Assembly (NCBI GenBank): GCA_021432655.1
Contig: MU271388.1
Coordinates: forward strand, 1-64,000
DNA from: Atractiella rhizophila
Taxonomy: Eukaryota
Reading direction: 5' to 3'
DNA length: 64,000 nucleotides
Positions 26,070 to 35,879 of the stretch are shown here, piece after piece. How positions within the stretch are numbered: position 1 is the first letter of the stretch; the number at the start of each line of letters is the position of its first letter. A model generated the notes under the pieces. It worked only from the letters and a program-made list of their open reading frames with translations, was not told the DNA's origin and searched no databases. A program made the translations under genes and the position numbers.

Positions 26070-28485
26070 CTAGGAGTCCTTGAAACGTTCGTTCCATCCC
26101 TCTAGTGATTGCATAGTGTCAGTCAACCCTGAAGCGTCGACGAACATATACGCCAGCTCGCAAAAAGCGAGGTGGATAAGTTCCATCTCGTCGTTCGAAA
26201 GCTGGCACTTCATCAGGATATCTGGATCCCAACCCACCAACGCGAACTGTATAGCACGAAGGACAACAGGGTAAGGCGTGTGCTCCCCCTCTTCCGGTGA
26301 CTGTTCCCAATTGGACTCATGAAGCATGGCCATGGAGGTGAGTTGAGGACTGACAGCAAACACAGCCCTTAGCAAGGCTAGCAGACTCTTCATATATCCC
26401 ACTACCATCTCCTCACTCTGCTTCAAGATTTCTTCCGTCACATTTCCCATCTCTTTCTGACGTCCAACGAGTTCGCGATGCAGTGAAAACACTGTTCGTA
26501 CGATTTCACAATACCCGATCCCAAAATCACCTCGAGGGGTATCCATCCAACCTGTTGAATTTGACGCAGTTCCGGAGCCATTAGGGAAGAGGACGTCTAA
26601 CGCGCCAGTGGTACAGAAAAACGAATTCATGATGGTTGAGAGGTCCTGTATTGTATTCGATACTTGCGTCCAGAAATGCTGCACGCGTTCGATAGTAACA
26701 TTTTTCAGCTTAGATTTCTCTTAATTCGCGCATCAAAACCGTTGTTCAAACAAAAAGCGAGAAAAGCCGCACGAGATGTCCAATTGTTTACTAACAATCT
26801 GTACAACACACCAATCCTCACCCCGAGCAGCAGAGCTGTCGGATATCTCGAGCAAATCTCAGATGAGCACTGTGGTTGGAGCCCTACGAAAACGTCGAGC
26901 GGGAGACTTGAACGGGACATGAAGAACTGAACATCATCATCTGTAATTAATAGTCGGTCGGTTGTGCGAGAAGAAGAAATCGCATCTCGGTTAAATAGAT
27001 AGCAGGAAACTGTCTCGTACATCGGCTGTGATAACTGTGGTACTATGAGATCCTGCCCTGGCTTGATTAGTATGAAGATAGCTTCTGACGGCGCGGCTCA
27101 CCAGCGAGAGCGTACGCCAGTGCTGGATTGCAAGGATCAAGAAAGGACGGCTGTCCTGGCTGTCTATTCCAAACAGACGAATTAGAGGTTGCCTTTGCTC
27201 TGTTTCTGAGGAAATAAAATAGTTTACGAGAAGAAAATTCAACCAGAAGCAGCGCCGCTAAGCTTCCAAATGTGCTCTTCCTCAACACGCCACTCCCATC
27301 AATCATAGTTGTTCCTTTCCTTTCAAGCACTTCGCAAATCGGCTGTCGAAGCTGACCGTAGATGTAGTTCGAATCCTTGCCACGAGTATCTCGGAGACAT
27401 GGGACGTCAGACTGCCCTAGGATGAGAGGATGATTTGTTATTCTTGCACCACAAGCGGAGATGGCTAACTCGCATCCCTTTATTCCATTAGCATTGAAAG
27501 GAGATGGCGAAGAAGCTCACCTCTGCGACGTCGGGAGGGAACTTTGGTTCGAACGGCCCAAAGAGAGTTTGTAAAGGTGTCCCTGCCTACGTTCGAGTTG
27601 GATTGCTTTCGCTGGAGGGAACAGAAACTAACGGCAATGAATAGTAGTTCAGCGGGCATGATCAATCGCGCCACTTAGTCCCAAAAATGAGTCAGCCGCT
27701 GCATCGACAATGTTAGGAACATAGAAGTGAAATGACGAAGCAGATTTCATAACAATCAAACTGGAGGATCGCCTGATTCCGTGACCTCCTTCCTGTGAAT
27801 TTTAACAAATACGGAGAAAAGTCTCCTTTCAGCGACAGATGACGTTGTACGGTACGAAAGACAGACAAGAGAATAGAGCACATACTTTCGCTCAAATGCC
27901 CACTCAATCCTCTCCACAACTCATTCCGAAACATTCTCTCCTCCCCTTTCCTCGTTAAGATTTGCAAGACAGTGCCGTCATCCCTTTCACTACCAAACAT
28001 CTCACTGTTCACCGCACCGATGTTTGAATGAGCGAATTATACGGATGGGGAAGTGGGACCGACCGAGCTTTCGCGATCCTCTTCCCTCTCTTTGACAGTC
28101 CAGTACTTCCAGTCCGGTACCGCAAGAGAATTTGCCGTTCCTCTGTAGGAGAGACAGAGCATATTAGATTTTGTTGTACACAAACAGCGCAGGGCTCATT
28201 TAGGGCATTTAATTCGGGGGCAGACGATACTGAGGAGGTGGTGGTCGAACGGCGAATGCAACGAATGTGTCGAACTAGACCTGTCATGAAGTATGAAAGC
28301 TGAGGGAAGTTTATTAGCTAGCAAATGTGTTACAATGGTCCTACTCTCGTTTCATTCTCAGTGAACAGGAAAGCACGGAGAAGTTGACGCACACAGGATC
28401 GGTTAAGACGGTCCCGTTTCTTGCTATTCGCTGATGGCGGGTTCGAGGTTGTGGATGTGCCTTTGACAACAGTAGACCGATTCAT
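26070..28485 (-). CDS. Zn(II)2Cys6 transcription factor, paralogue A (multi-exon; middle exons not fully resolved)
   Basis: Spliced cluster RLNRSC/DH/CLVRHIRC-x22-CAVCVQQNLIC. Downstream exons are homologous to paralogue B. Confidence 0.75.
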
Positions 28486-29218
28486 ACCTCTTTAGTGCAG
28501 GCAACTATTACGAACAGAAGCAGTGAGTGTGAAAATATGAAATCAAAGGCACTTTGAGTTAGGTGCGGTTTTCACTCGTTCGGTTGTGCTGATAGGGGAT
28601 GCAAAGCACGCATTTGTAACATAAATCTCTTGGAATTTGAACTACATGCCCCAATATCAATGGTAGGCTTGTATCTGGCCTAGTTCGTTGACAAACTAAA
28701 ATGGCAGAACGCGAACCCGAAAATATATCTTTGGAACTTGAACTGTCCATTCAATAATAATGTTTGCGCAGTTGGCAAGAGTGAAAGAGGAGACAATAAG
28801 GCGGCCTCGCACCTGGTATACGCTAAACCTTTACAGCTACTAGCATAATAGACCTCTGGTTATAATGGGAAGGCATTTGCTCACTAGCACGGCTATGTAT
28901 GTTTATATGCCAGTTTATCCGACCGACCAGAGAGTTTATTACAAAGCCAAGTTATTGAAGCACAGCTGGGTACTATACCGCGCCAACGAAAAACGCAATT
29001 ACAAATGAAATTGCAACTTCACCGTGCTTGAAACTGCGAGGCGCCAACAAAACAAGAAATAGAAACAAGTGAATTAGGCATAGGCGAGACTGGAAACAGA
29101 TAATGTTACAACCAAACTGATGATAATGTAGAATGAAGACCAATTGCCCTCAATGAAGACCACAAACAGTGATCTGAAGTCAGTGATTGACACGTTGTTA
29201 CAAATCTGCTCTGCGCTG

Positions 29219-32013
29219 CTAGTCCCTGGTGAAAATATCCTGGTAGTGCTGACAGGCCTTAAAGGCGCGAAACAGCTAGTCTGATGCATCAGCACTGAAT
29301 CGTCCCTCTTACTTCAATCAAAGGACAGACCATAGTTTTATATTGGGAGATATCTTTCACCCCTCCGACATCCCCATCCTTAAACTGCAACCTGAGCTCA
29401 TCGACCGTCCTAGCTCCAGCCAGCAGGTGTTCAGGACTGACAAACTGGGAACAGAGATGTATCACGTTTCCTTCGTTCCTGCACTGTTTTGGCCATCCAG
29501 CAGGAATAAAAATCGCGTCCCCTTTCCGTTGGTGTACACGTAAAGGTTGAACTCCTCGTGTTCTCAGCTCGACAAGCTGATCATCCGAAAGATAATGCGT
29601 CCTGCTGAAACAAGGATCGTCGAAATTTCGCGTCGCCTCGGCAACCGTTATTTGTTCTTCTTGAGCTATGATCTCGTACAGATACGCTCTCAGCTGAAGC
29701 ATTGCATTTATCCACAGACGAACAGCTGCAACCAGCGCAAAGAAATCTTACCGTAGGGATCTGGCCTACCGGGAAGAAATCCCATATCGCTTCACCCCTC
29801 ACTTGCTTAATGGGATCCTTTGCGTATAAGAGCACGTCCACGACTGACTGCGGTTCAACATTGGCCTACAACACTTTAAAGGAGGAGCTCACCATCGTGC
29901 TGATCAGCTTGGATCCTGAAGGTACTTGGAGGAAGACGGAACTGGTTGCCAGCTTTCGCTGCAAAGTCAAGTCTCACTCCCCTATTAGTTGATACCCTCA
30001 GCGGTGTTTTTCAGTACGCTACCCGCGGAACTCACAAATCAGGCAACAAGCTGTTGGCTGGCAGGTAGGAGAGAACGTTGCGAAACCCAGTTGGATTCGT
30101 CCAGTCAGGGAAGGGCAGGAGCTCTTCAGCCGCATCTTGCATGGAACTCGGACGGATGGGAACGTCCTAGGGATTGGAAAATGAGTACACGGTGCGTCGG
30201 TTACGATTTAACGTACGCTGAGACGAAAAGCGTTGTCGTGATTGCAATCCGAATCAAAATGCGACAGAAACTGCGCGACCGAGCAACGCTGGTAATGATC
30301 CACTCTTCGTGCAGAAGTCCCTTTCAAGTTACAGATATCAGCCTCCACAGTCCCAAGTTCCTGCTTGATCCTGATAAGTTTCCATTGATCCCCTATCTTC
30401 AAACCCTTTTGCACAACCGGACCTGTCCATGTGGCCAACTGCCATGCCCCAGCGAAAGAATTCAAGTCCGATTCAGATGTTAAGAAAGTGATGGACGGCG
30501 GGTGACAAATATCAGGAGGGAGCGCAACGGCATCTGCCACATCTTGTACAGCGTACTTAGTCGCAAGATATTCTTCGTGAGGGTGGCAATGATAAGCGAA
30601 GAATGACGACGCCGAGTGAGTTTTGAATTCAACCTTCGAAATATTCTCCACTTTGCCCTTCGTTTTGCTCCAGTTCTTCTTGAGCTTCGGAAGACAGTCT
30701 GTGACCCTTTTCGCGGCAGCACGAGTGAGACCTCCACCCTTTCCTCCCTCAGATATCTCTCTCAAAAGTTCAAAGCACCCCGGACAGTGAGTTCTTCCAC
30801 AATCGCCACAGAAATAGTACGCTTGCAGGATACCAGTCGAGCATACATCACAGCTGAAAGCATCTTCTAGTGACTGGCGTTTGATGACCAGTTCCTTCAC
30901 ATTACCAGACGTCGACTGTGACCGCAACCACCCATACATCTTTTCCTGATGTTGCCAATGCGCATCAAAATCGTGCGCTAATTGGAGCGATATCCTGTCC
31001 ATCATATACTTCAATGCCTCCTCATTGAGCTTGGTAGCGAAGTCATCAGGCAATCGGTATCTCGGCAGTTCCGTGTCGTCGATTAACGTCTCGAAGAACG
31101 GACCATCGCTGATATATTCTTCAGTGTCTCCATTTGCGGAGGATCTCGACTTCCAATCGAAGACCCGAACATACTGAAAGAGGCATTCGTCCTCGATTTG
31201 AAGCTGACAGATGTAACACTTTGGGTAACGACAAAATGTCTCGCTTGTGCAGGCGTGTTGCTGGAAACGAGGTGTCCCCTTATCCTCGATCGACTCAGCA
31301 GTCTGAATTTGTGAGACATCAGGATCCGCCTGCGCTGTGCTTGTTGAGATGGCCTCCCGTTTCGTGGAGTTATGGCGCAATGGACGACCGCTTTCAGATG
31401 AGCTTGACTCTGTGACTGCATTCTTTGCCCTTGAACCACCCTTGCCCATCGTCAATAGCGATCGATCACGCAAATTCGGCTTTGGGTTCGAGGGCAAAGA
31501 CGAAATATCGCTTAGTTGAGGAGATCGAGAATGGTTTTGGACCGTCGTTTCCTCCATTTCTAGAGGCGATTCAATTAAACGAGCGCTTCCGCTAGTCGAT
31601 CCAGAACGCAAGCCGTCCGAGACAGCCAAGGAAGAGGTTCGTCTCTTTTTACTATGTCTACCGTCTGCAGCGTATGAGCGACGTTTGACTGGTCCAGGCG
31701 ATCCCAAACGCGGTGGAGCATGGCCATCGGACGGAGAAGTCGAAGGTGGCGCATCCGTATCGCGCTCATTAGACTGTTTCAGAGACATAGCTGATGTTGC
31801 CGCAGTGAGAGAAGTTCTTGTTGAATGGATAGTTTGAGATGGAGACGTTGGTGTGGTCGATGTTTGGCCACTATCACTGAATTTGGCACTGGTAACTGAT
31901 TGTAGCCTTTGACCTTCTTCTTGCCCTAGTGAATCGACCGTCATGGAAGTTACCTCCGGTTTCATGTCTTCATTTGTCTCGGATGATTCCCTATTGGTCA
32001 CGGTCAGGGTCAA
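29219..32013 (-). CDS. KDM3/JHDM2-type JmjC protein with a Cys-rich zinc finger; catalytic His residues replaced
   Basis: CDVCSTGILQAYYFCGDCGRTHCPGC finger; LPFPDWT...LPDL; AIWDFF; FSRTHYL; QRKGDAIFIPAGWPKQCRN...FVSPEH. The last exon LFRAFKAC...RD* ends at 29219. Start uncertain (first in-frame ATG at 31965). Confidence 0.85.
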
Positions 32014-32235
32014 TGAGATACCAATTCATTTGGTTGCATAGTATCCAAAATGCCGTTATCATTTGTTCTCATGTATCAGTATTTGATGGCGCACACAACT
32101 GTCATGATGCAAGATGTCTGAAACAAATTCTGCAATTCAGACTACCAGCAAAACGGTCCTTAGACTTGCAAACACGTATGAATAGAAAATTAGCCACTGC
32201 TATCTAAAGCTAGACGCATAGTTGTACTATACATA

Positions 32236-32757
32236 TCATCCTAGCAGTAGCAGAGTTTGCAAAAGATGCAATCGGGCTTGGCATACGTTCAAACTAATGT
32301 AGACGCATGAGACAGGAGCTCTGTACGTGGAATCATGGGAAGGCATTTGGCAACGGCTTGGTGCTGTGGACTGCTCCCAAACAGCTGAAGAAAGGTTGGT
32401 GTAGGGCAGTTCACCAGCACACACACTCTCTCTTTGCAACGAGCAGACTTACTTAACAAAGTCCTCTAGCTTCACGGCCCATTGTACTACCTTTACTTGT
32501 TTTATCATGCTACCTCTATCCTTACACGTCTCCAAACACCTGTAAGCGGCCAGAAGGATCTGTTTATCCTTCCCACCTGCACCTGCGTTTCCCATCTGCA
32601 GAACCTGCTCAAGAAACGGCTGCAGGGTATCGATCGTGAGCGCGGTGTCCCCTTCGAGGGCTTGGAGAGAGTCGAGGAGGGATGGGTTGACGATATATTG
32701 GGAGGTAGGGAGGGAGAAGATTGAGGAACGTAACGTGGAAAGCGCGTAGGTCGCCAT
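32236..32757 (-). CDS. Small hypothetical protein (at least 2 exons; 3' end uncertain)
   Basis: ATG 32757, a 102-aa helical-looking exon ending at a GTAAGT donor near 32452. Confidence 0.45.
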
Positions 32758-32994
32758 TAACGCATTAGGTAAGTTGCTCTGATCGCGTATTGCCCATCAA
32801 CCAACGGTACTCCTAACTTGACGCCTCCTAGACGTGTCGCAAAACGCAGAATGGTCCACAGATTCCGCCGCTTTGCGGTGTATCAAGAGGTGTTCGTGAA
32901 CGAGTTCTGATCGAGTGGTTGCAACCGGCGCACGGAACCGCTCGGGCGGGACAAGGCAGCCTAAAAAAGCAAAGAGAAGCTGACAAAAGTAAGC

Positions 32995-33000
32995 AAAAAA
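32995..33000 (-). terminator. Pol III T-run terminator of tRNA-Lys
   Basis: T6 two bases after the tRNA 3' end. Confidence 0.8.
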
Positions 33001-33002
33001 GA

Positions 33003-33075
33003 CGCCCAACGTGGGGCTCGAACCCACGACACTCAGATTAAGAGTCTGATGCTCTACCGACTGAGCTAGCCGGGC
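33003..33075 (-). tRNA. tRNA-Lys (anticodon CTT), intronless
   Basis: GCCCGGCTAGCTCAGTCGGTAGAGCATCAGACTCTTAATCTGAGTGTCGTGGGTTCGAGCCCCACGTTGGGCG forms a cloverleaf with A and B boxes. Confidence 0.97.
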
Positions 33076-33463
33076 TATGGATCATGTTCATGGTGCAAAT
33101 TTCTTTTCAACCGATATAAGCCATTGGGTCTCCCACTTCATTGACAACCCACTATTCTACTCTCATGGATCCTTTTGCTCTTCCAACCCTTTATGCTCTC
33201 TATGGGTGGTAAAACGTTCCATCCGCCCACTTACGGGAGAAAACACGAATGTCCAGAACATCCGTTAAGCCAGCTAGCACTTCAACATTGATCGGCTTAT
33301 GGTGTGAAAGCGACGTAAGACTTTAACGAAGGTATATTTAACAAGGGGGAAACGCAAACGAATGCCTCCCGAACGCGACGTCATGTTTTCCCTTCCCTGT
33401 CTGCAACCCGTCGTGGGACTCGTTATATATTATTCTACAAAGGCGAAGAACGGCGTACCGTGG

Positions 33464-35879
33464 TCAGAAATCGACGTTTTTGACGTCCATTGAACAACTC
33501 CTTGGCAATCTATACGCCGCCTCTCCCTTTGGCGCCAACCGCGTTCTCCACCCCTCCAGTTCCTGCATCGCCTCCAAAAGACAGGAAGCATCAACAAACA
33601 TGTATGCGAGCTCGCAATAAAGGAGGTGAATGAGCTCTAAATCCTTTTGGGAGAGGTCACATTTGTGCAAGACAGTCTCATCCTCAATTTCGGCCATCAT
33701 GAACTGGACCGCTCGCAAAATGGCAGGATAAGGAGTGCGAGGGCCAGTTTCTGGGACCTGCGTACGCAATCACATCGGCTCTAGGGGAGGTGTAATGAGA
33801 GAAGACAAACGGCGAATATTGCGATCAGGAGCTGTAGGATTCCCTTCAAATGCTTCAAGGCCATTTCCTCACTCAGCTTCCACACTTCTGTCGACACATC
33901 CCTCTCCTCTCTCATCCTCCTCGAGAACTCCCGATGTAAAGATAAACCGGCTGACACGATCTCGCAATACGCAACGCCAAAATCTCCACGAGGAGTGTCC
34001 ATCCATACCCCTTCGGAAGATTTGGGAGACAGGAGCCGTTCAAACAACGCAGAACTGTGGAAATAGGCATCCATGATGTTCGACAAATCCTCGACCGTTC
34101 CCGAGACGTGGGCCCAGAACCGTTTAACTCGCTCAGGAGTAACTTTCTTCATCCTCGAACTCGCTTCGTCCAATAGTCAACATCCTCTCCTTTCCATTCA
34201 GGCAAATGCCACTAACCAGATCTCCAATTGTTGACTAAGGACCTGTGGAGGACTCCAACCCTCACCTCTAGCATCTGCATCAGCACGATGTGAGGGCATG
34301 CTCTGCATAACTCGGGAGAACATTGTCCTTCGATATCAGTGAACATGGCCAGAGGGAGGTGGGAGAAAGACATGAAGAACTGCACGTCATCTTCCGTTAT
34401 GGACAGCCTATCACCAATCTGCGAGGCGGAGACAGCATCGCGATAAAACAGATAACAAGCTAAAGAATCTCCGTTCACGCAGTTTCGCTTCTCCTGCAAG
34501 GCATGCTACATTTGTTCAACTGACAGATAGAACAAAAGGGATACATACGGGGAAACTAGTGCGCCAATGATAGATAGCAGCGTCAAGGAAAGTCCTACTT
34601 CCCCACGACGGATGATTTCCTGTTCCCTCCACTTCCCATCAGCCAACCGTTCTATTGGGGTCAGGAGCAGGAAAAGGGAGAAATGACGGTAGACTCACGG
34701 CTGACATAGAACTCGACCATCAAGAGGGTGACGAGGTTGCCCTCATCTACCTTCCTCAACCCACCTTCCTTATCCAACAACCTGATCCCTTGCTTCGCCA
34801 ACTCGAAGCAGATCGGTTCCCTCAGCCTCCCATATATGTGACTCGTGGAAGAACCCCGACTTTGGAGCAGAGTCGGGACGTTGGATCCGAGGATTAGAGC
34901 ATGGTTTGTGACCCGCGCTCCACAGGCGGAGAGCGTAATCATTGCTGCCTGTATTTTTTTGGGAGAATGGTTCAGCGGAGAATACTGAGATGAGAGAGAA
35001 AATGATTTGCCTCCGGCATACCATTTGGATCTCTCAGATCTATAGTGGTAAAGGAGGAGCCTGTCCTCTTGCTCGTGCCTTTGTCAGAGTTCCAAAGTAC
35101 GAGCAATCCAGAGGGCAGGAGCGAATCCGCCACTTATGTGAACGATTTGACCGTCAAATCAAACGACGCCCTCAAAGAGAGAGTTGGACAGACTCTGCAC
35201 AAGATGGACGCTCATCTCTTTCCACAACTCCTTCCTATACCCCAAATTGGCCAATCCAATTGATTCGAGCACGGTTGGAGATTCGTTCCAAACGAACGCA
35301 CCTAAATAGTCTCTCCTCCGCCTTCCTCCCCAACAGATCGAAGACGGTCCCTTCCGCCAACCCCCCATTTCCATCAATACCAAAGATCTCCCTACACCAT
35401 TTCACGCATCAAACAATGACAGTCGCTCGGGGAAATCAACGACGAACTTAGCTTCCTCGATCCGCCTCCCTTTCTTGTTCAACCCACTCGTCCCAGTCCG
35501 ATACCTCAACAAGATCCGTCTCTCCTCAATCGTCGAAGTGGAGCATAGAAGATTCTTGGAGTGGCAGGTGAGACAAGGGTTGAGATGATCGTGGCCGTTA
35601 CGGCTGGAAGAAGATGGATGCGAAGCGGGTAAAAAGGAAGGACGGAGGCAAGATATGTGACGGATGAAACAGTAGTCCTATCAGTTAGAGCAATGAGTCA
35701 ACTTATGGTTAGATGGTAGGAATAGGAAGGCAAAGACAAACGCAAGACAGTGTCTGTCTCCTCCCACCATAAATACTGGGGGAAGCCTTATTGCTCCCGC
35801 TGCTGCTCGAGTTTGCACTCGAAAGCTTTTGATCCTCTGACTCTCTCCATCCTTCTGCTCGATCATAAGATGGCGACAT
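33464..35879 (-). CDS. Zn(II)2Cys6 transcription factor, paralogue B (multi-exon; one internal segment unresolved)
   Basis: RQTLSC/DYCFIRHISC-x24-CLTCHSKNLLC across intron 35678-35741. Shares EERxILLRYRTG, SACGARxTNH, DDDVQFFMS-like, WMDTPRGDFG and ELIHLxxCELAYMFVDAS blocks with paralogue A. Confidence 0.75.

Follow-up and report, generated by a model that had tools for sequence, protein, structure and literature searches.

The window analyzed here is a stretch of 64,000 nucleotides (nt) from Atractiella rhizophila, a root-associated fungus (assembly GCA_021432655.1, contig MU271388.1, positions 1 to 64,000 of the forward strand). On its minus strand, between positions 32757 and 29219, lies a gene of seven exons that encodes a KDM3/JHDM2-like protein of 936 amino acids (aa), hereafter the window protein, in which zinc-finger modules are followed by a JmjC domain. 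An earlier note, made from the sequence alone, had claimed that this domain lost both Fe(II)-binding histidines and had read the protein as a catalytically dead chromatin reader or scaffold. Our gene model was built by reading the minus strand and joining the exons via their coordinates, and it gives an uninterrupted frame of 2,811 nt. The introns measure 462, 50, 54, 49, 58 and 55 nt, and all six follow the GT...AG rule.

Exon 1 (32453..32757) starts with the ATG at 32757-32755, encodes residues 1-101 plus 2 nt of the next codon and is identical to the one in the public gene model discussed below. Exon 2 (30217..31990, residues 102-693) is located within the open reading frame (ORF) 30208-32025 and encodes a Ser/Thr/Pro-rich tail, both zinc-binding modules and the beginning of the JmjC-flanking region. 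Exon 3 (30036..30166) provides residues 694-737, exon 4 (29893..29981) residues 737-766 with the degenerate HxD motif Q761-A-D763, and exon 5 (29752..29843) residues 767-797. Intron 5 (29694..29751, 58 nt, GTAAGA...CAG) separates the latter from exon 6 (29331..29693, residues 798-918), which encodes the C-terminal JmjC half, P-K866-Q and H876 included. Exon 7 (29219..29275), which follows an intron of 55 nt whose GTCTGT donor is weak, encodes residues 919-936 and the TAG stop codon (29221-29219). The interval 29219-30230, for which the earlier note had traced the exons, thus corresponds to exons 3-7 and to the JmjC domain.

Three public sequencing runs (X1, X2, and X3) carry part or all of the stretch, and their contigs were placed on positions 29150-32800. 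The shares of the stretch found in X1 and X2 are small (0.07 and 0.05) and uninformative on habitat. Contigs of X3 span all six introns, with joints at 32452/31990, 30216/30166, 30035/29981, 29892/29843, 29751/29693 and 29330/29275, so that every exon border of our model is seen in this run. Three of the six joints are found in X1 contigs as well and one in X2 contigs; the joints of exon 3 are seen in X3 and X1, those of exon 4 in X3, X1 and X2. Since contigs that skip GT...AG introns can arise only from RNA, the gene is transcribed and spliced. The exon structure proposed in the earlier note is consequently correct, and no observed transcript form restores the missing His residues. The X2 contig that covers the Gln codon of the first motif (29893-29958) shows zero differences from the window, and the X3 contig over the Lys codon in exon 6 differs from it only at 29558 and 29598. 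Thus, both codons are unchanged in these transcripts.

Two further observations concern the transcripts. Over 30650-31260, two contig forms of similar depth occur in several stretches of X3 (e.g., 13.5 of 30.5), which suggests two alleles or strains of the JmjC gene in the RNA sample. Furthermore, intron 1 (31991-32452) is 462 nt long, compared with 49-58 nt for the other five; RNA depth is near zero inside it and no Rfam match was found there.

A word-index search with exon 2 led to a single match, the public protein P0001 ('hypothetical protein BT69DRAFT_1372513 [Atractiella rhizophila]', 853 aa). This protein equals our 936-aa model through residue 797, then reads through intron 5, shifts frame and adds 56 out-of-frame residues before it ends at 29581. 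Because intron 5 is retained, the C-terminal half of the JmjC domain is absent from P0001, and no Pfam family was matched. The public gene model BT69DRAFT_1372513 is mis-spliced, and the RNA contigs back the spliced 936-aa form. Lacking a domain annotation in its public version, the gene is hidden from domain-based surveys.

The assignment to the JmjC family is based on several lines of evidence. The ORF 29289-29747 (minus strand), which contains exon 6, matches the Pfam JmjC family PF02373 of the cupin superfamily with a marginal 25.1 bits (E 2.5e-5, cut-off 24), and this score is backed by phmmer matches to KDM3B and JMJD1C chains for both halves of the domain. KDM3B or JMJD1C account for all seven solved-structure matches of P0001 and for the top seven of 11 obtained with the exon-6 ORF. 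The architecture is that of KDM3/JHDM2 proteins as well, with a zinc-finger module upstream of the JmjC domain whose conserved Cys and His residues are kept. To quantify this, the window protein was aligned with 25 proteins that have complete N-terminal regions, namely its paralogue P0002 (BT69DRAFT_1240864) and 24 canonical rows, and columns were recorded in which 80% or more of the canonical rows carry Cys or His (n=20). In the zinc-finger part all 13 of these columns are kept (C349, C360, C363, C371, H449, C482, C485, C496, C499, C504, C507, C534, and H560), which bears out the intact zinc finger of the earlier note. In contrast, all seven conserved Cys/His columns of the JmjC part are altered (L657, Q761, F826, W864, K866, V874, and G890). 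Damage is therefore centered on the catalytic core.

Most of the kept residues fall into a first conserved Cys cluster (C349, C360, C363, and C371; 31183..31251, minus strand), with Cys in 21-23 of the 24 canonical rows, and a KDM3-type zinc finger (C482, C485, C496, C499, C504, and C507; 30775..30852, minus strand), with Cys in 22-24 of them; C534 and H560 follow downstream of the latter. Upstream, the first 330 residues consist of a short helical region that belongs to no known family and the Ser/Thr/Pro-rich tail. For the N-terminal 110 residues, neither a Pfam family nor an ESM Atlas feature match was obtained, only generic helical look-alikes. A basic patch that resembles a bipartite nuclear localization signal (KRR, spacer, KKRR; residues 204-219; 31639..31686, minus strand) was found by pattern match and suggests that the window protein may be targeted to the nucleus.

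At the active site, both JmjC peptides quoted in the earlier note are present in the spliced minus-strand translation, with the Gln and Lys codons exactly where it had placed them. CAA (29909..29911, Q761) stands where the first Fe(II)-binding His would be and AAA (29487..29489, K866) where the distal one would be, while GAT (29903..29905, D763) represents the acidic ligand, which is kept, and CAT (29457..29459, H876) takes the position of a near-invariant Lys. In phmmer comparison against solved structures, P-K866-Q aligns with the PHQ of KDM3B (6rbj, E 4.5e-7) and V-I-H876-L-C with C-I-K-V-A; with P0001 as query, Q761-A-D763 aligns with the H-I-E of JMJD1C (9gdk/5fzo, E 1.5e-4 to 3.3e-4). 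A homologue search with P0001 among 1.84 billion representative proteins returned 85 proteins, to which eight relatives of a further A. rhizophila protein, P0003 (BT69DRAFT_197152), were added. These relatives include plant proteins that their sources name JMJ2x demethylases and that carry PF10497. The resulting profile alignment comprises 93 rows, namely the spliced window protein and 92 proteins, with a profile derived from 12 canonical members.

Within this alignment, 75 of the 93 rows have T-H-D-N-H-K at the six tabulated positions, while the window protein reads T-Q-D-D-K-H and thus keeps the Thr preceding the first His. The first His is present in 90 of 93 rows; it is replaced by Gln in the window protein, by Arg in P0002 and by Lys in P0021. 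At the distal position, His is found in 80 of 86 filled rows and is otherwise replaced by Lys (window protein and P0002), Tyr (P0056, P0062, and P0083) or Phe (P0093). The conserved Lys occurs in 78 of 84 filled rows and is His (H876) in the window protein. Both His residues are missing from just two of the 93 rows, the window protein and P0002. The three changes claimed before, H to Q, H to K and K to H, were hence recovered in the profile alignment and in the phmmer alignments to KDM3B and JMJD1C alike. Of the Fe(II) facial triad HxD/E...H, which reads Q761, D763 and K866 in the window protein, only the Asp is kept. The replaced Lys may bind 2-oxoglutarate, as stated in the earlier note; the literature passages did not confirm this role, and the alignment shows only its near-invariance.

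According to the passages of PMC3623819 available to us, a single His-to-Ala exchange at the first position (H1120A and H1560A) abolishes the activity of KDM3A and KDM3B. Since both canonical His ligands are gone from the window protein and such an exchange inactivates its human counterparts, Fe(II)/2-oxoglutarate-dependent catalysis at the canonical site is ruled out, as far as this can be judged from sequence.

Other deviations were noticed in the alignment as well. A shared Tyr-to-Asp change in the GPKMY motif was considered as a lost 2-oxoglutarate ligand and dropped, since JMJD1C differs at this position too. P0056, P0062 and P0083 retain HxD/E, but their distal motif is A-Y-Q, with Tyr for His like Epe1/PHF2, and the conserved Lys is gone as well. 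Within the main and otherwise canonical clade, P0056 groups with P0083 as its sister (Shimodaira-Hasegawa-like approximate likelihood ratio test, SH-aLRT, 99). Judging from these three proteins, members of the KDM3-like family seem to have lost part of the cofactor site repeatedly.

While the catalytic core is altered, the gene as a whole appears constrained. In the contigs of X1, X2 and X3 together, 72 differences from the window were counted; the 40 best supported of these 72 are all located within the coding sequence, with 27 synonymous and 13 non-synonymous variants. Given 642 synonymous and 2,166 non-synonymous sites and a neutral non-synonymous share of 0.77, this corresponds to a ratio of non-synonymous to synonymous polymorphism per site (pN/pS) of ~0.14, and 13 or fewer non-synonymous variants among these best 40 of 72 would be expected at random with a binomial P of 2.5e-9. 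Among the same best 40, residues 601-936 show six synonymous against two non-synonymous variants, and both variants of exon 6 are synonymous. The earlier note had regarded neutral variation together with a lack of expression as a sign of a decaying pseudogene; the strong bias toward synonymous variants speaks against one. Together with the intact seven-exon frame, it argues clearly against a neutral pseudogene.

The window gene is not the only KDM3-like gene of this fungus. P0002 is a protein of 596 aa, approximately 27% identical to the window protein and without its long N-terminal tail. Its six positions read S-R-D-N-K-N, i.e., H to R, H to K and K to N, in an intact frame. P0003, in contrast, is canonical at all six tabulated positions (JmjC match E 8e-13), so that the second, intact KDM3 whose presence the earlier note had left to be checked does exist. 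The genome of A. rhizophila thus carries two KDM3-like genes without either His residue and at least one that is intact. Of the columns conserved to at least 90%, the window protein keeps 36 of 64, P0002 likewise 36 of 64, and P0003 57 of 64.

Several results link the two deviating proteins. In a blastp search with the spliced window protein, P0002 was the best match (1.6e-57, vs. 9e-39 for P0003). Both share nine non-consensus residues at well-conserved columns, including the His-to-Lys change that gives both the P-K-Q motif, and several of these residues are unique or nearly so; a C-terminal KACQHY motif is common to both as well. For a quick maximum-likelihood tree, the 19 rows with less than 80% of the columns filled were dropped and 74 of 93 rows were used; here the two form a pair at SH-aLRT 98. 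A tree that unites all three Atractiella proteins was not rejected (approximately unbiased test, p-AU 0.907) and lies 33.8 log-likelihood units above the free search, a gain that says no more than that the free search had been shallow and that the clade stands unrejected. The simplest history would be that a canonical KDM3-like gene, as represented by P0003, was duplicated within the Atractiella lineage and that the distal His changed to Lys before the two dead copies, the window gene and P0002, split. A burst of divergence would have come next, followed by purifying selection on the window gene.

Taken together, we consider it likely that the window gene is a transcribed, spliced and selectively maintained paralogue of the KDM3/JHDM2 type that is non-catalytic and acts via binding. 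The reading of the earlier note, a catalytically dead protein, is supported in this respect by the loss of both His residues, the intact zinc-finger cysteines, the splicing and the expression. Mechanistically, the change from HxD...H to QxD...K and the loss of other JmjC core residues would remove the Fe(II)/2-oxoglutarate oxygenase function, and the preserved zinc-finger modules and the reshaped body of the JmjC domain may bind chromatin or partner proteins in the nucleus. The protein may occupy histone H3 tails, or it may partner or compete with the active paralogue P0003. Any particular binding partner is considerably less certain than the general reading. With its cofactor ligands lost and the gene expressed and constrained, the window protein falls into the same class as JMJ24, Epe1 and JARID2, which is a functional class and not a clade.

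One might speculate further that the window protein and P0002 act together as regulators of the one active KDM3, as a pair specific to the Atractiella lineage. The shared distal Lys would then pair with the retained Asp and replace the metal, and the JmjC pocket, fixed in a stable state free of cofactor, would take up the H3K9 tail or dock on the active paralogue. We regard this idea as rather unlikely. If it were true, the dead copies would shield H3K9 methylation or tune the enzyme like a prozyme-like partner, and the antagonist logic known from plant JMJ24 against IBM1 would have arisen independently in a fungus.

Several observations weigh against a maintained, non-catalytic binding protein, and they are best considered along with the explanations that compete with it. 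The reader or scaffold role would rest on analogy with JMJ24, Epe1 and JARID2. In addition, the variants counted above are the best 40 of 72, pooled over three runs whose kinship to the assembled strain is not established. No orthologue outside A. rhizophila was found among the 1.84 billion representatives, where P0002 is the next protein after P0001, and a search of metagenome contigs of the Joint Genome Institute (JGI) with exon 6 gave 138 pattern matches of which none was confirmed. Long-term conservation of the dead state can therefore not be claimed. Moreover, the end branches of the window protein and P0002 are long (3.72 and 1.86 changes per column vs. a median of 0.46), a warning of long-branch attraction, and if either of both is left out, the remaining one lands at unsupported positions. 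Thus, the tree alone does not date the duplication.

One alternative is a decaying duplicate, a transcribed pseudogene in which the active-site changes are merely the first visible damage. The long end branch, the retention of only 36 of 64 highly conserved columns, the lack of an orthologue in the representatives and the JGI contigs and the truncated public annotation without a Pfam family would all agree with it. However, a frame of 2,811 nt is unbroken over seven exons, RNA contigs lack all six introns, none of the 13 zinc-finger Cys/His columns is altered, synonymous variants outnumber non-synonymous ones (27 vs. 13 in the best 40 of 72, pN/pS ~0.14), and P0002 holds the same His-to-Lys state in an intact frame as well. 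A decaying duplicate is thus quite improbable in our view. Slightly less probable still is a metal-dependent enzyme with a rearranged site, in which D763, H765 and H876, or other residues, would support oxygenase or other catalysis. Two non-canonical His residues are indeed found near the site, H765 two residues after the retained D763 and H876 in place of the conserved Lys, and the passages of PMC7192584 at hand report that the function of Epe1 requires its non-canonical Tyr. Yet P0002 has Ala and Asn at the positions of H765 and H876; the arrangement is therefore not conserved between the paralogues, which weakens this explanation. What both paralogues have in common is the Lys at the distal position, and Lys is not a usual Fe ligand in 2-oxoglutarate oxygenases. 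Furthermore, none of the seven conserved Cys/His columns in the JmjC core is kept.

The remaining alternative takes the annotation at face value: the real product would be the intron-5-retaining form of 853 aa, in which the zinc fingers are followed by no more than the first half of the JmjC domain. P0001 ends that way, and one X2 contig (29604-29754) is unspliced across intron 5. This contig would reflect either some intron-retaining RNA, which would encode the truncated form, or sampled precursor RNA. Against such a product, an X3 contig removes intron 5, and the 139 further in-frame residues gained thereby match the JmjC Pfam model and KDM3B. They include C-terminal motifs shared with P0002, and both exon 6 variants among the best 40 of 72 are synonymous. 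We therefore give the truncated product the smallest chance of the alternatives.

A transcribed, maintained and non-catalytic KDM3-like protein would not be without precedent. Two KDM3 clades of Arabidopsis and poplar ('AtKDM3A/AtKDM3B', Zhou and Ma, 2008) have variant cofactor sites and are expressed nevertheless, according to the parts of PMC2579438 and PMC3623819 that we could draw on. According to PMC4743055, the JmjC domain of JMJ24 is atypical, and the protein works non-catalytically, via RING E3 ligase activity on CMT3. The plant proteins resemble the window gene in combining a zinc finger with a JmjC domain whose cofactor residues are replaced, in being expressed and in occurring beside active paralogues such as IBM1/JMJ25. 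However, the RING E3 activity of JMJ24 on CMT3 is plant-specific, and neither such a module nor such a target was seen in the window protein. The plant row P0093 has a different pattern, I-H-K-Y-F-Q, while the window protein has neither His and carries Lys at the distal position. The loss of ligands in the window protein is independent of the plant loss.

Among proteins of known structure, human KDM3A, KDM3B and JMJD1C (4c8d, 6rbj, 2ypd, and 5fzo) share the architecture and provide the best matches for both JmjC halves, but they carry HxD/E...H where the window protein has Q...K. Identity of the window protein to any relative is about 25-30%. The comparison with Epe1 drawn in the earlier note is a fair one: in the sections of PMC7192584 that we consulted, Epe1 is described with HxE...Y, no demonstrated demethylase activity and a non-enzymatic role that opposes heterochromatin. 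Like other proteins of the Epe1/PHF2 type (HxD...Y), it has a non-canonical ligand set, as does the window protein. It differs in belonging to another JmjC subfamily, in keeping two of three ligands (one of three in the window protein) and, as far as the same sections go, in that mutations of its cofactor site still affect function. Closer analogues than Epe1 are the dead members of the KDM3 clade, namely the two plant clades and JMJ24. For JARID2 and Hairless, the part of PMC3623819 available to us states that they have no demethylase function through lost cofactor-binding residues and act as scaffolds. Both differ from the window protein in being animal proteins with other partner domains, and JARID2 belongs to a KDM5-like branch. 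Hairless is reportedly active according to later claims.

Catalytically dead KDM3/JmjC proteins are thus already known from plants, animals and yeasts, and the window protein adds a fungal KDM3 case. A literature search for dead KDM3-type or pseudo-JmjC proteins in fungi found none, which is no proof of absence in print. The window gene extends the repeated conversion of KDM3-type enzymes to non-catalytic proteins to a fungus, here with both iron-binding His residues lost. Two dead copies beside an intact one in a single genome provide a natural setting for asking what role dead copies play, while we know of no established genetics for A. rhizophila.

A tRNA-Lys gene (CTT; 33003-33075, minus strand; ARAGORN; Rfam 65.4 bits) shares the strand of the JmjC gene and is located ~250 nt upstream of its start codon, and Rfam gave nothing except this tRNA over 27500-35500. 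No transposon-like ORFs were found among 25 window ORFs scanned. The JmjC gene and the tRNA gene are flanked by two paralogous genes on the same strand (~26070-27520 and ~33460-35080, minus strand) that match no Pfam family, are ~45-60% identical in tblastx segments and are collinear over ~1.5 kb; the two make up a tandem pair with the JmjC gene between its members. The remainder of the window (1-64000) encodes a C2H2 zinc finger protein, a ubiquitin C-terminal hydrolase (UCH) peptidase of family C12, a DNAJC28-like protein, RNA recognition motif (RRM) proteins, an aminotransferase, MoaE, and WD40 and SH3 proteins, and is of ordinary housekeeping type.

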